Shown piece after piece: positions 10,471-40,944 of a stretch of 47,876 nucleotides of DNA. The position numbers and the translations under genes were made by a program. This DNA is from Candidatus Moraniibacteriota bacterium (GTDB lineage Bacteria > Patescibacteriota > Minisyncoccia > Moranbacterales > UBA9337). Under the pieces are notes generated by a model that made no database searches, was not told the origin of the DNA, and saw only the letters and a program-made list of their open reading frames with translations. Position 1 is the first letter of the stretch, and every line of letters begins with the position of its first letter. Where the stretch lies: positions 1 to 47,876 of the forward strand of contig JAZHDF010000076.1 of NCBI GenBank assembly GCA_036584565.1. The letters run 5' to 3'.

Positions 10471-10474
10471 TTAT

Positions 10475-10503
10475 ATGTCGCACAATCTATATTTTACGAC
10501 ATT
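10475..10503 (+). other. attL: dif-like recombinase core site (11-6-11) containing the 13-bp att repeat
   Basis: atgtcgcacaa-tctata-ttttacgacat. The arms match in 9 of 11 positions as inverted repeats. The 13-mer attttacgacatt (10491-10503) recurs at 39906-39918. Confidence 0.6.
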
Positions 10504-10693: not shown

Positions 10694-10891
10694 TTATTTT
10701 TTACTCTTTGTCAAGACCCTTGAATTATTCAGTATAATCAATCTGACCGCCTCCCTTGTTAAACCAAAAAATATCCCTATTTCATTGAGGGTTTTTCCTT
10801 TTTCTCTCATTTCCAATATTTCCCGATTTCTTTCAATCTTAATATCGTTCAATTCTTTTTCCAGTTTTTTAATTTTTTGATTGTAGTCCAT
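10694..10891 (-). CDS. Small HTH protein (excisionase or regulator candidate)
   Basis: 65 aa. Coiled-coil N-terminus, then the sigma-70 region-4/LuxR-like HTH TLNEIGIFFGLTREAVRLII. It lies downstream of int. Confidence 0.5.
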   Translation of the reverse strand: MDYNQKIKKLEKELNDIKIERNREILEMREKGKTLNEIGIFFGLTREAVRLIILNNSRVLTKSKK

Positions 10892-10959: not shown

Positions 10960-11841
10960 CTATTTTAAAAATAATTTTGCTCTTTTCTCAAATTCCTTAT
11001 CGTTCCACTGCATATAAGTAAATGACGAACTCGGATCACAATGGCCCAAAATCGCCTGTACATCTTTAGGATTTCCCTCTAGATCCAAAATCCGGTGCGC
11101 TTTACCATGTCGGAAGCTATGCGGAGTTATCTTTTTTTCGATTCCGGCTTTTTGACATAGATCTTTAATAATTCTTTGGACACTTCGAGTAGTTAATCTT
11201 ATTGTTGGCTTACCTCTCCCCTTTCGACCAATAAAAAGTGATGGGGTGGAGTTAATTTTTTGTCTTTGAATTAAAAATTCTCTTAACATAACATGAGTTT
11301 CCACGCTCCAAAAAATAGTCCTCATCCTTATAGTTTTCTTGGTTCTGATTGTCGCGCTCATCCTTAACGGATCAATATCTGAAATGTTAATGTCGCACAA
11401 TTCGGAGACTCTTATTCCTGTCTCAAATAATAATCTGACGATTATCAATTTTTGAAAGTCCCAAAAATCATCAATTGTAATTCCAGCCATCAACAAACAA
11501 TATTCCTCAAAATTTATCGGCTGATAAGAGTTTGCTATCGTTTTTTTAATTCGGATCAATTCCGGTGATAAACATTTTTTTCCCTGCAATCGCCAAAACT
11601 TGAAATAATTTTTTAAAATAGTCATTGATAATTCAATCGACTTCGGTTGATAGTTGTTATCCTCAAGCCAGTTTTTAAATCCGACTATATCCCCCACTCC
11701 GGCATCATCAATTTTCTTACCGGAAAATTTTTCAAACTTTAAAAGCCAATTCCCATAATTTTGATAAGCGCGCCTTGTATATGTCGCTTTCCATTCAAGA
11801 TATAATTTGATATTTTTTCCCATACGAACAAAACCACTCAC
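10960..11841 (-). CDS. int: Tyrosine recombinase / phage integrase, XerC/D-like
   Basis: ETGIRVSEL (Arg), HSFRHGKAH (HxxR) and LGHCDPSSSFTY (His...Tyr), plus an N-terminal SAM-like domain. The track start at 11841 is GTG; the ATG at 11823 (MGKNIK) is more likely. Confidence 0.9.
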   Translation of the reverse strand: MSGFVRMGKNIKLYLEWKATYTRRAYQNYGNWLLKFEKFSGKKIDDAGVGDIVGFKNWLEDNNYQPKSIELSMTILKNYFKFWRLQGKKCLSPELIRIKKTIANSYQPINFEEYCLLMAGITIDDFWDFQKLIIVRLLFETGIRVSELCDINISDIDPLRMSATIRTKKTIRMRTIFWSVETHVMLREFLIQRQKINSTPSLFIGRKGRGKPTIRLTTRSVQRIIKDLCQKAGIEKKITPHSFRHGKAHRILDLEGNPKDVQAILGHCDPSSSFTYMQWNDKEFEKRAKLFLK

Positions 11842-23775: not shown

Positions 23776-24978
23776 TTACGCCATCAATTCTTCCTCATCC
23801 TCATAAATAGGATTTCCCAAAACATCATATCCCTTAACAATTCTTTTTTTGCCCTTATTATTCGGATCATACCAATCCTCGGCGTTTTCCGGATTTTCGA
23901 GATCTATATTCTCGTTAAATTCGGGAGTGTCTAATTCTGCCGGTGCGCTTATATCGATTGAGGCCACATTGAGGGCATCCGCACTACCTCCGAACTCTTT
24001 CATTTTGTTTTCCAATCCGGCTCTGAAATTGCTGGCGCTATCTTTTATGTAAGAAATTGACGACATCAAGCCTTGCAAGTTTTCAGTTGATTTTGCTTCA
24101 ATATCTTCCTTTTCCCATCCGCCTTTTTTCTTCTTAAGTCTATCGAGTGCTTTTTTCTGCTCGTTGTAGTCTTCCCAAGCCTGCTTAAGCGCTTCTTCTT
24201 CCCATGTATCGGCTTGAGCGGAAAGAGTGTTATATTCTTCGCTGGCCTTTGTAGCATTTTGATTTTGCTCGCTTATTTGATCGCCAAATCCTCGCAATAG
24301 TCCGGCTCTTTGTTTTCCGGCGCTCTTTGCAATCGCTCGAGATGCCATTTTGCTTGCGCTTCCGCCACTGGCGCCTTTGATGCCAAGCATTATGTTTGTA
24401 TTATCGACATTTTGTCTCAAATCTCCGGCGAGATCGTCAAGCGCTCCCTTTTGGTTTTTTTGAATCAATTCTTTGTTTCCGGAAATAGCGGAATCGGTTT
24501 TTCCCTTATAATTATTGAGGGCGTTAATATATTGTTTTTTAACTTCTCCTAGATTGGATATATAGTTTTTTGATTTATTGACCCAGTTTTCCGCATCTTT
24601 TAACTCATCTCCGGCATCGTCCCATCCCTTGCCTATTTGAGATATAATTTTACTATCGTTATTATTAGCCGATCCGCCTCCGCTTGAGCTTCCGCCATAA
24701 GAACTATTTGATGATTTATTGTCATTTATCGCCGGAAACTGACTGATTGGAGTCATATATTGAGATGAATTATTTGACCCGGTTTTTTTGGCTTGACTCT
24801 CTTGCCATTCCCTAATACTTGAGTCGTTCATATCAATATCACTATCATCCGCCATTGCTGTCGGCCACAATAAACCGACGGCCGTCCCTACTCCGGGAAT
24901 AGCCTTTGTGCCTATTTTTGATCCAACTTTGGCCGCGCCTGACTTTATTGCATTTGCTATTGTTCCTAAACTTGCCAT
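23776..24978 (-). CDS. Virion/internal protein candidate (Gly/Ser-rich, coiled-coil)
   Basis: 400 aa. Hydrophobic Gly-rich N-terminus, low-complexity SSGGG region and an acidic C-terminus. It lies immediately upstream of the giant gene. Confidence 0.4.
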   Translation of the reverse strand: MASLGTIANAIKSGAAKVGSKIGTKAIPGVGTAVGLLWPTAMADDSDIDMNDSSIREWQESQAKKTGSNNSSQYMTPISQFPAINDNKSSNSSYGGSSSGGGSANNNDSKIISQIGKGWDDAGDELKDAENWVNKSKNYISNLGEVKKQYINALNNYKGKTDSAISGNKELIQKNQKGALDDLAGDLRQNVDNTNIMLGIKGASGGSASKMASRAIAKSAGKQRAGLLRGFGDQISEQNQNATKASEEYNTLSAQADTWEEEALKQAWEDYNEQKKALDRLKKKKGGWEKEDIEAKSTENLQGLMSSISYIKDSASNFRAGLENKMKEFGGSADALNVASIDISAPAELDTPEFNENIDLENPENAEDWYDPNNKGKKRIVKGYDVLGNPIYEDEEELMA

Positions 24979-24993
24979 ATTTTTATTTGGTTA

Positions 24994-25030
24994 TTGACAA
25001 TATTGCGATTTTACGCAATAATGCTATAAT
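24994..25030 (+). promoter_or_regulatory. Promoter(s) plus palindromic operator for the + strand moron
   Basis: TTGACA (24994-24999)-17-AATAAT and TTGCGA (25003-25008)-16-TATAAT (25025-25030). The palindrome attgcg-N6-cgcaat (25002-25019) overlaps both. Confidence 0.5.
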
Positions 25031-25059
25031 TTAATTACTTAATTTATTACTTCTTATAT

Positions 25060-25419
25060 ATGAAAAATTTATTTAAAAATTTGCTTGTTTTTGTTTATGC
25101 TATATTTGGGCTTTCCTTGCCTCTCCTTTTCGTTGGAGAAAATACCGATCTGTCTTCTAAATTGATTTATTCTTCGCTTTACATTTTGTCCGGTTTCTTG
25201 TTTATATATTTTGGTCAATTATTCGCCACCGACAAGAAAAAAACAGTTTATATTTTGACAAAAATCGGTGTTTATTTTTTCGGATTTATTCTTTTATTCG
25301 GTGTTTTAATGTCCCTTATATTTTTTGATAAATTTTCAAAAATAGCATGGGAATCGGCATTTACATTTGCAATTTTATCCGGCGTAATAACCGCCAATCA
25401 ATTATTGTTAAAAAAATAA
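25060..25419 (+). CDS. Four-TM membrane protein (moron; superinfection-exclusion candidate)
   Basis: 119 aa with four hydrophobic helices. It is on the strand opposite to all other phage genes. Confidence 0.6.
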   Translation: MKNLFKNLLVFVYAIFGLSLPLLFVGENTDLSSKLIYSSLYILSGFLFIYFGQLFATDKKKTVYILTKIGVYFFGFILLFGVLMSLIFFDKFSKIAWESAFTFAILSGVITANQLLLKK

Positions 25420-33023: not shown

Positions 33024-33545
33024 TTATTTTAAATTTATATTATTTTTTACTTCGTTTCCCCAGACATCCCAACCCTCTGTTTTTTCTCTTGCAAACATTT
33101 CCAGTTTTGTACATTTAGGAAATTGTCGGCTTATCAATTTCCTAAAATAAGATGGTTTTTTTGAGTGTTTAGATTTTTTTTCCCGATAAACGGAACTTTC
33201 TCTTAATGGTGGTATTGGCGGAGAAAATTTGCCCCTAACACCAACTAATAAAATCTCATGTTGTCCTCTAAACCAATAGCCCATACCAACCCAAGTTTTA
33301 TCCCATACCGCTTGAGTCTTATACTTAAAGCCCCACGCTTTCATAACCTCTAGCGCCTCCAGTAATTTTGGTGCAGTGGCCCAAAGATATAAAACCGAAT
33401 TATCATCCACCGGAACTTTAATATTGCATATATCTGCATTTGTCATTGTTGGATAGTGATTTTCTATTTTATCCGCGTTATCCTTACAAAAATCATATCT
33501 CCAAGGTGGGTCTGCATATATTATTTGATATTTTTTTAGGTTCAT
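33024..33545 (-). CDS. MT-A70-family N6-adenine DNA methyltransferase
   Basis: 173 aa. IIYADPPWRY (DPPW catalytic motif), YLWATAP and AWGFKYKTQAVWDK. Confidence 0.85.
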   Translation of the reverse strand: MNLKKYQIIYADPPWRYDFCKDNADKIENHYPTMTNADICNIKVPVDDNSVLYLWATAPKLLEALEVMKAWGFKYKTQAVWDKTWVGMGYWFRGQHEILLVGVRGKFSPPIPPLRESSVYREKKSKHSKKPSYFRKLISRQFPKCTKLEMFAREKTEGWDVWGNEVKNNINLK

Positions 33546-40410: not shown

Positions 40411-40872
40411 TTAAATCTCGGAAATTTTTTTAATTTCTTCCAATACTCGAGCAAAGCCCGGCATCAGCTTATATTTTGAGGCCTCTTTTATATCTATCCA
40501 TTTAAAACCTTGCGCCTCCCAGTCAAGCCTTATTTTATCGGTTTTTACCCGCACCAAGATAGGATGCACTATCCAAATTTTGTCATATTTCGGGGCGCTT
40601 TGATGAAAAATCCTTCCCAATTCGATTGATTTGATTGCGGAGGCTTTTAGTCCCAATTCTTCTTCAATCTCTTTTTTTACTTTTTCTTTTAGTGTTTTAT
40701 TGTCATCCAAAAACCCGGAAATTCCATTATAATAATTCGGGTAAAAATTTAATTTTTTGCTTCTTTGAACAATTAAAAATTTTCCCTTAAATTCCAAAAC
40801 GCAATTTATAACCGGCACCCAAGTAATCTGAGTATAATCGGTTTGACCTTCGGCCGGTTTAAATTTTTTCAT
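40411..40872 (-). CDS. NUDIX-family hydrolase
   Basis: 153 aa. Nudix-box-like GFLDDNKTLKEKVKKEIEEELGL (the REUxEExGU part is conserved as KEIEEELGL). Confidence 0.7.
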   Translation of the reverse strand: MKKFKPAEGQTDYTQITWVPVINCVLEFKGKFLIVQRSKKLNFYPNYYNGISGFLDDNKTLKEKVKKEIEEELGLKASAIKSIELGRIFHQSAPKYDKIWIVHPILVRVKTDKIRLDWEAQGFKWIDIKEASKYKLMPGFARVLEEIKKISEI

Positions 40873-40927: not shown

Positions 40928-40944
40928 ATAGATTGTGCGACATA
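40928..40944 (-). repeat. Inverted third copy of the attL left arm plus central region (half dif-like site)
   Basis: The reverse complement tatgtcgcacaatctat is identical (17 of 17) to 10474-10490. It lies about 55-70 nt upstream of the NUDIX start. Confidence 0.85.

Follow-up and report, generated by a model that had tools for sequence, protein, structure and literature searches.

Background

The mobile elements that most closely resemble the one described here are the IMEX elements, which integrate at dif by way of an attP that mimics this site, with identity in one arm and the adjoining bases of the centre, and which regenerate dif at one of the two junctions (PMC5357621, PMC12715192). These dif-integrating elements have been described as being without a recombinase of their own (PMC5357621, PMC12715192). 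Those with which we compare the present locus are CTX-phi, VGJ-phi and TLC-phi of Vibrio, the gonococcal genetic island, and the dif-type double jelly-roll phages with their 17-bp one-armed attP. On the side of the host, the closest counterparts are the single-recombinase Xer systems, namely XerS/difSL, XerH/difH and the archaeal XerA/dif, in the first of which the xerS gene is genetically linked to difSL (PMC1914069).

The prophage considered here resembles the IMEX elements in that it appears to have integrated at dif through a dif-like attP. It departs from them in that the phage and its relatives encode an Xer-like integrase next to attP, in that it is a 29-kb dsDNA phage with terminase and tail-like genes, and in that it resides in a CPR host that apparently uses a single XerA-like Xer. 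Based on the comparisons presented below we consider it likely that the locus represents a dif at the replication terminus into which a 29.4-kb temperate phage was integrated by its own Xer-like recombinase via a dif-like attP. The association of an integrase-bearing phage clade with the dif of CPR bacteria, as suggested by these genomes, is what is new here; in searching the literature we came across no paper that connects dif with Patescibacteria.

The insertion and its attachment sites

The window analysed is the entire 47,876-nucleotide contig C76 of genome G000 (1.15 Mb in 97 contigs, 37.6% GC). Its left flank carries host genes for a kinase, a PD-(D/E)XK nuclease, a radical SAM protein, IscS and IscU, and its right flank genes for a NUDIX hydrolase, a C39-like peptidase and GltX. 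Between them lies the prophage body (10503-39889), nearly all genes of which are on the minus strand and are co-oriented with replication towards dif; these include an M23 lysin, a holin, tail-like proteins, a 2117-aa protein, pieces of a terminase and a replication initiator.

At the left junction, a preliminary description of this DNA had placed an 11-6-11 site with 9/11 dyad symmetry between its arms within 10474-10503. This site is real and occupies 10475-10502 on the plus strand, where attL reads ATGTCGCACAA-TCTATA-TTTTACGACAT, with the left arm at 10475-10485, the centre at 10486-10491 and the right arm at 10492-10502. The right junction, attR (39890-39917, plus strand), is a hybrid in which a phage left arm, CAGTCGGACAA, and a phage centre, GTCGGA, precede the common right arm TTTTACGACAT; as had been described, its right arm is identical to that of attL, its left arm agrees in 8/11 positions and its centre differs, save for the last base. 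Consequently, the two junctions share a 13-bp direct repeat, ATTTTACGACATT, in which the right arm is preceded by the final centre base and followed by one further base. It is present in exactly two copies in the window (10491-10503 and 39906-39918, both on the plus strand), and the crossover must have been confined to it (10491-10503 at the left junction). The insertion amounts to 29,415 bp, comprising 10503-39889 plus the duplicated right arm, and host sequence restarts directly after the right arm at attR.

The resemblance of attL to the E. coli dif core, which had also been pointed out earlier, amounts to 14/17 positions and is the top match in the window on both strands. The dyad symmetry, on the other hand, is uninformative as evidence for dif: 26 sites of 11-6-11 form with at least 9/11 symmetry are found in the window, versus about 9 in shuffled sequence. 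The significance of the site accordingly stems from its conservation rather than from its symmetry. A 10/11 copy of the attR left arm (CAGTCGGATAA, 39796-39806, plus strand), 94 bp inside the phage, is likewise present as previously described. As a candidate accessory or arm site it is of doubtful significance, not being kept in the related phage of genome G004. An RNA gene as the integration target was also considered and rejected, as no tRNA genes, tmRNA genes or Rfam families were found at or near the attachment sites or elsewhere in the window.

The prophage-free state of the locus is preserved in a congener, G002 (10 contigs, 100% completeness). Its contig JBAZSW010000007.1 (C7) runs collinear to the window on either flank and is missing the prophage body; it carries dif, followed by a spacer of about 630 bp and then the NUDIX gene. 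The insertion thus lies exactly at dif and has left dif intact at attL. The earlier proposal that a phage with an Xer-like recombinase targets the host dif and keeps its sequence whole is borne out by this exact empty site together with the complete 28-mer at attL, and the dif at attL is presumably still functional.

Conservation of the 28-mer and its position at the terminus

We searched for the 28-mer with up to 3 mismatches in 61 genomes (60 relatives and G000 itself), with the reversed pattern as a control. It was matched in 16/61 genomes, the reversed control in 0. Among the congeners, 7/8 have it as a single copy at this threshold, and it also occurs in 8 genomes belonging to other families of the order (f5, f6, f8, f12) or to another genus of the host family. 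One copy was found in 15 of the 16 matching genomes, and the exception, G003, has two, on contigs that resemble two strains; each of 5 complete or near-complete records likewise has one copy. It is mostly the centre and right arm that carry the mismatches to the 28-mer. Among the relatives, several read ATGTCGCACAA-TGTATA-TTATRCGACAT, i.e. with the E. coli-type centre TGTATA, and the centre TCTATA of G000 contrasts with a genus consensus of TGTAGA. The preliminary description had named a search for the 28-mer in related genomes as a check, and far from being missing from prophage-free relatives it is found there in single copy, and no other conserved dif candidate was needed.

The site is also recoverable well beyond this order. 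The pattern ATGTCGCACAA-N6-TTNTNCGACAT is present in at least 119 GTDB species genomes, which are labelled Saccharibacteria, Paceibacteria, Nomurabacteria, Moraniibacteria, Magasanikbacteria, Shapirobacteria, Levyibacteria and others, with TATATC and TATACC as the most frequent centres across the CPR motif.

Gene orientation converges on the site, in keeping with the earlier description: long ORFs left of attL total 2539 aa on the plus strand versus 592 aa on the minus strand, and those right of attR 119 aa on the plus strand versus 2296 aa on the minus strand. GC skew within the window turns from positive to negative at about 10.4 kb. The same switch is found at the site in 10/10 relatives with long contigs, whichever strand carries the site, with spans of 20 kb to the left and 3.1-20 kb to the right depending on the available sequence; gene-strand bias is a confounder of such local skew. 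In 8/10 of these relatives' contigs the long ORFs point towards the site, no clear bias being apparent in G032 or on the right flank of G052, which is short. In 7/11 cases, G000 being counted, the cumulative skew maximum lies within about 210 bp of the site, and in the others it is on a plateau 2-9 kb off.

Chromosome-wide data point in the same direction. In the complete record OZ244141.1 (511,782 bp; 78% sampled), the stretch from about 150 kb to 352 kb has positive skew and the remainder negative skew, and the skew maximum at 349,233 (about 349.2 kb) practically coincides with the site at 349,787. The GC-skew check that had been suggested earlier therefore places the switch at the site both locally, in 10/10 relatives, and across this whole chromosome. 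In 4/5 of the complete or near-complete records the site lies at 41-45% of the chromosome from dnaA, the remaining one, BOKX01000001.1, having it at 19%. KOPS-like polar words in OZ244141.1 give no more than a hint, AGAAGGG at 64:8, in a ranking that is dominated by coding-strand composition. Taken together, the site is very probably at the replication terminus of the host; as G000 is in 97 contigs, its own terminus is deduced from this contig and from the relatives.

The host Xer and FtsK

A dif site would be expected to be served by the host recombination machinery, and the G000 genome encodes an FtsK with a recognisable gamma domain, along with an Xer on contig C27 that passes the NCBIfam cut-off for XerA (243 bits against 220) and scores 250 bits with XerC and 246 bits with XerD. 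Querying the genomes with the phage integrase mostly recovered one Xer-type gene of about 30% identity, in 49/61 genomes, the C27 Xer of G000 being among the matches. A second recombinase, on contig C1, has a patchy distribution (30/61 genomes) and is probably accessory. We propose that dif is served by a single XerA-like host Xer plus FtsK. In its form, copy number and terminus position, and in the company of Xer and FtsK, the 28-mer agrees with everything that can be computed for a dif site, and we regard it as highly likely that 10475-10502 is the chromosomal dif of this Parcubacteria-group (Patescibacteria/CPR) bacterium and that the phage targets dif.

In several respects this predicted arrangement recalls the single-recombinase Xer systems. 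As in those, there is one conserved host Xer and the arms of the site are nearly palindromic; as in archaea, XerA is the best-scoring comparison for both host Xer and phage integrase; and as with xerS and difSL, the xer gene is linked to the site in a subset of lineages, lying 0.4-2.1 kb from it in 22/119 CPR loci. However, the CPR site, a 28-mer, has the classical 11-6-11 format and a centre resembling TGTATA or TATATC, and is in this closer to the dif of XerCD than to difSL. Furthermore, unlike in archaea, an FtsK with a gamma domain is present in the G000 host, and, unlike xerS, the xer gene of G000 is unlinked to dif.

The phage integrase and related prophages at dif

The integrase gene (10960-11841, minus strand) codes for a 293-aa Xer-like tyrosine recombinase, and its 3' end lies 460 bp from dif. 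The protein has just two domains, an N-terminal one of SAM-like type and the catalytic one (Pfam PF00589, 91 bits), and a domain search found no arm-type DNA-binding domain in it. Against the NCBIfam models it scores below every cut-off (XerA 155 against 220, XerC 107 against 335, XerD 105 against 330, XerS 60 against 267), its best PDB matches are the XerA structures 5HXY and 4A8E, and it is 31% identical to the host Xer. By these HMM and PDB scores, on which its placement is based, the integrase is Xer-like yet outside the XerA, XerC, XerD and XerS equivalogs. Between it and attL lies a 65-aa HTH ORF (10694-10891, minus strand), a candidate directionality or regulatory factor.

A search for homologues of the integrase recovered 229 at E <=1e-20. 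Six of the related prophages are situated at dif, with integrase identities of 86% (G001), 74% (G004), 66% (L182), 64% (L183), 58% (L185) and 52% (L187, GCA_041596615.1), L182, L183 and L185 being metagenomic contigs. In all 7 prophages, that of G000 included, the 28-mer lies 250-460 bp downstream of the integrase gene with its right arm towards that gene, and in L182, L183 and L185 a gene for an HTH, Sigma70_r4 or Mor-like protein (58-63 aa) lies between the integrase and dif, as in G000. The integrase clade is one linked to dif. In the more distant homologues L193 and L194 (41-45% identical) no dif-like site was found nearby, and the L192 locus has only the left arm plus centre of such a site. 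The right arm of the G001 site carries a T/C difference, and the attR of the G001 prophage is missing from the assembly.

Both ends are known for three phages, those of G000, G004 and G066. In G004, attL reads ATGTCGCACAA-TATAGA-TTTTACGACAT and attR GAGTCGCGCAA-GTCGGA-TTTTACGACAT; in G066, attL reads ACGTCGCACAA-TGTATA-TTATGCGACGT and attR AGCGCTGACAA-TAGATA-TTATGCGACGT. The identity between attL and attR is in each case limited to the right arm, 1-3 adjoining bases of the centre (only 1 base in G000) and 1-3 bases outside. These three phage lineages hence agree in having an attP with a weak left arm (matching the host arm in only 6/11 positions in the G066 phage), a non-homologous centre and a perfect right arm, the host centre being found at attL and that of the phage at attR. 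The attL centres of 7/7 lysogens differ from the phage centre GTCGGA, although these are not all independent since the same-genus prophages of G000, G001 and G004 may stem from one integration. In G001, L182, L183 and L185 the attL centre is that of the genus or the CPR consensus, and in the other lysogens it is close to consensus.

A search of viral contigs for a free phage attP returned only the G004 prophage itself. When the reconstructed attP sites of the G000 and G004 phages (about 70% identical overall) are compared, they form an island of conservation (25/28) in otherwise unalignable DNA, which sets in precisely with the left arm and extends over the centre GTCGGA. This suggests that the whole 11-6-11 attP unit is constrained. 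About 12 bp past the right arm (CAGGCTTT) are also conserved among the phages.

As in modules of the lambda type, the integrase gene is next to attP and adjoined by a small HTH gene, and attL and attR each carry a copy of a short common core. Unlike the lambda-type integrase, however, that of the phage is without an arm-type DNA-binding domain, and the sole candidate arm copy (39796-39806) is unconserved. Moreover, the common core covers one arm of a recombination site belonging to the host, and not a central overlap, and the centres of the phage attP and of dif are heterologous.

Proposed mechanism of integration

Tyrosine recombinase protomers each cleave at the junction of their own arm with the centre, and the 2-3 bases that are swapped must pair with the partner. 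As attP and dif share only the right arm and 1-3 adjacent centre bases, we propose that integration would proceed by site-specific recombination between dif and the dif-like attP CAGTCGGACAA-GTCGGA-TTTTACGACAT, situated 460 bp downstream of the integrase gene, with the right-arm protomers cleaving and swapping a strand at the boundary of the centre and the right arm. The centres would not be exchanged, such that attL would keep the left arm and centre of the host and attR those of the phage. Homology is found only beside the right arm, and the junctions as observed match what the exchange of one strand pair by the right-arm protomers would be expected to produce. Given the heterologous centres, the resulting Holliday junction would most likely be resolved by replication, in the manner of the CTX-type IMEX elements. 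The phage integrase would supply FtsK-independent catalysis at the right arms while the host Xer may occupy the left arm of dif, the assignment of proteins to arms being drawn from the same layout. That only one strand pair is exchanged, by a single-strand-exchange mechanism, is to our minds nearly an even proposition.

A different and rather unlikely account is a conventional integrase reaction, in which a 6-8-bp overlap inside a common core of 13-17 bp, i.e. the right arm of dif, supports two strand exchanges with full homology. The integrase would then have its own core sites on both sides, dif would merely be a conserved safe target and the 11-6-11 look of attP would be incidental. The lambda-like layout is in line with this, with the integrase gene adjoining attP and common cores of 13, 14 and 17 bp, and so are the catalytic completeness of the phage recombinase and the conservation of CAGGCTTT past the right arm. 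However, the integrase is of the two-domain Xer type without an arm-binding domain, and inspection by eye found no inverted repeat around the common core. Furthermore, the conservation between the G000 and G004 attP sites starts at the left arm and takes in GTCGGA, which would be unexpected if only the right arm mattered.

It is less probable still that the phage is a true IMEX element which the host Xer alone integrates, with the phage integrase serving for excision, for multimer resolution or for the FtsK-free activation of the host Xer. One perfect arm followed by a heterologous centre is indeed the layout of an IMEX attP (PMC5357621, PMC12715192), but the recurrence of an Xer-like integrase gene 250-460 bp from a dif-like site in 7 prophages, down to 52% identity, has the appearance of a classical int-attP module, and IMEX elements are by definition without a recombinase of their own. 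We did not file the prophage among them on account of its intact 293-aa integrase 460 bp from attL; we rather favor single-strand exchange by the phage's own enzyme.

Half-sites beside dif and upstream of xer genes

An isolated, inverted copy of the dif left arm with 5 bases of the centre, ATGTCGCACAATCTAT, is found at 40928-40943 on the minus strand, 61 bp upstream of the start codon of the NUDIX hydrolase gene (40411-40872, minus strand; Pfam PF00293), a host gene that lies between dif and this half-site and is collinear in G002, G003 and G005. The copy had previously been reported as 17/17 at 40928-40944, and this has to be corrected to 16/16 at 40928-40943, the 17th base being mismatched; a repeat search extended it to 29 nt at 86%. 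The half-site did not arise as a by-product of the present insertion. An inverted (A/G)TGTCGCACAA is also present 0.9-1.2 kb past the right arm in G002, G003 (on two contigs), G005, G006 and G008. Where the NUDIX gene is present the half-site lies 51-61 bp upstream of its start, and it persists where the gene is degraded or absent. A promoter at the G000 half-site, TTGTAA-17-CACAAT, was considered and found to be a weak candidate, being uncalled by a promoter scan and unconserved in G002.

The earlier suggestion that this half-site is a scar or a substrate for inversion, which we take to mean a remnant of a previous integration or the partner of dif in an Xer-mediated inversion of the NUDIX segment, is improbable in our estimation. 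While the identity in G000 runs 5 bases into the centre (TCTAT), which is a G000-specific centre, and the two left arms point away from each other, as would the ends of a segment capable of inversion, the half-site occupies the same position in the same orientation in the prophage-free G002, G003, G005, G006 and G008, and no inverted arrangement of the NUDIX segment was seen in the genus. It also has no right arm, and by our own derivation two left arms are not what a simple integration or inversion would leave behind.

Such half-sites are instead a recurrent feature of CPR genomes. The exact left-arm 11-mer has 63 occurrences in the 61 genomes versus 8 for the reversed control, and clusters in pairs. 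Within 1.5 kb of CPR dif sites, half-sites with up to 1 mismatch number 23 on the side of the right arm and 6 on that of the left, about 3 per side being expected. These copies consist of the left arm, often followed by the first centre bases, and have no right arm. In at least 6 lineages a half-site is found 17-66 bp upstream of the start codon of xer, where it coincides in part with a CAnAAT resembling a -10 element, often preceded by TTGACA at a distance of 17 bp, and in G002, whose xer gene is unlinked, a half-site is found at the start of that gene. We speculate that the half-sites are putative Xer-binding sites with a regulatory or terminus-organising role. Work by Karaboja et al. from 2021 reportedly found that XerD-binding sites unload SMC in the terminus of Bacillus subtilis (cited in PMC12322038). 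This offers a loose precedent, in that isolated putative Xer half-sites occur outside dif in the terminus region in both cases; unlike the B. subtilis sites, those of CPR are found no more than 1.5 kb from dif, on the side of its right arm, and in several lineages 17-66 bp upstream of the xer start codon.

Combining these observations, we tentatively suggest, at somewhat less than even likelihood, that the phage clade has made an Xer-derived recombinase into a dedicated dif integrase, acting in a one-sided, IMEX-like and FtsK-independent manner with a heterologous centre, and that the host Xer of CPR bacteria additionally acts as a site-specific regulator on left-arm half-sites beside dif and in its own promoter. 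If so, this would constitute a third use of dif, beside dimer resolution by the host and integration of recombinase-less IMEX elements. As an integration hot spot in CPR bacteria, dif is used also by phages with their own Xer-like integrase, and the line between integrase-dependent phages and Xer-exploiting elements is blurred by this. These phages could also provide a natural system for studying how a simple tyrosine recombinase handles heterologous centres and escapes the control of FtsK.

A proposed dif consensus for Patescibacteria

Based on the above sites we propose ATGTCGCACAA-(TATATC/TGTATA)-TT(T/A)T(A/G)CGACAT as a dif consensus for Patescibacteria, which provides a simple marker of the terminus to orient and close CPR genomes. 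The motif is present in many Saccharibacteria MAGs, and, some Saccharibacteria being culturable, the predictions made here are open to experiment. It is scarcely credible that the 28-mer instead serves only as the core for phage attachment, or that it belongs to the isc operon as a regulatory palindrome or a terminator, for although 9/11 dyad symmetry is frequent by chance (26 sites in the window) and iscU lies left of the site in the host genus and several lysogens, the 28-mer is single-copy in prophage-free genomes across the phylum, is positioned at the skew maximum and has the host xer linked to it in 22/119 loci, and the isc-operon reading in particular is ruled out by the adjacency of IscU in only 4/119. 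This independence from flanking genes was checked at the IscU side of the site.

Sequence and gene orientation towards dif

On the complete 511,782-bp chromosome OZ244141.1 (loci L162-L181), we observed that the word AGAAGGG is strongly polarized towards dif (64 occurrences versus 8), as is AGGGAAG (54 versus 9). Both resemble the recognition words of Firmicutes SpoIIIE/FtsK, and are candidate KOPS-like words for the Patescibacteria (CPR). In the prophage (window 10503-39889) the - strand holds almost all genes, with long ORFs totalling 8011 aa against 474 aa, and the GC skew is -0.215. As the polarity of dif and attP is fixed, the whole phage is co-oriented with the replication fork heading to dif, and the prophage of the lysogenic congener G004 likewise follows the fork moving towards dif.

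Isolated half-sites and dif-like units

Of the 119 patescibacterial dif loci, 22 have the host xer gene on the right-arm side, at a distance of 0.4-2.1 kb and read away from dif. At least six of these 22 loci have an isolated half-site, ATGTCGCAnAA, 17-66 bp 5' of the xer start (example CPR dif loci, from the range L045-L156, are L134, L131, L122, L141, L117 and L118). This half-site overlaps a -10-like element, CAnAAT, often with TTGACA 17 bp upstream, an arrangement through which Xer could regulate its own expression. L109 (OZ241963.1) has an array in which three tandemly spaced dif-like units lie 13, 152 and 250 bp right of dif, their spacers being 11 nt rather than 6 nt (for example, ATGTCGCAAAA-GGTCTCGTAGA-TTATGCGACAA), and are followed by a fourth, isolated left arm at +336.

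The dif centre of the window's genome (10486-10491) reads TCTATA, that of the prophage-free congeners and lysogen G001 TGTAGA, and that of lysogen G004 TATAGA. The five bases adjoining the isolated half-site are TCTAT in the window (40928-40932) and TCTGT in the prophage-free G005; gene conversion between dif and this half-site is conceivable, if unproven. The 500-bp non-coding gap from attR to the NUDIX gene also contains an imperfect 51-nt inverted repeat (40110-40222; 76% complementary, 11-nt loop), for which no Rfam family scored above threshold.

The left-arm 11-mer and a second recombinase

All three related phages carry the 11-mer of the dif left arm, ATGTCGCA(C/T)AA, within their integrase gene (window 11390-11400; G001:C71:2571-2581; G004:C10:51985-51995), where it encodes the ELCDI stretch after the box I arginine. 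This may reflect chance plus amino-acid conservation, or an intragenic binding site for the integrase or Xer.

Contig C1 of the window's genome encodes a second recombinase, XerA/integron-integrase-like and 273 aa long (24496-25314). The gene is patchy, as no more than 30 of 61 relatives have it. Its homologues nevertheless share 55-84% identity between families, suggesting that it is mobile or has spread horizontally. The same contig bears the fourth exact genomic copy of the 11-mer (33318-33328, - strand). After this copy come about 150 nt that look structured and are GC-rich, although the genome is otherwise AT-rich; they might be an RNA gene.
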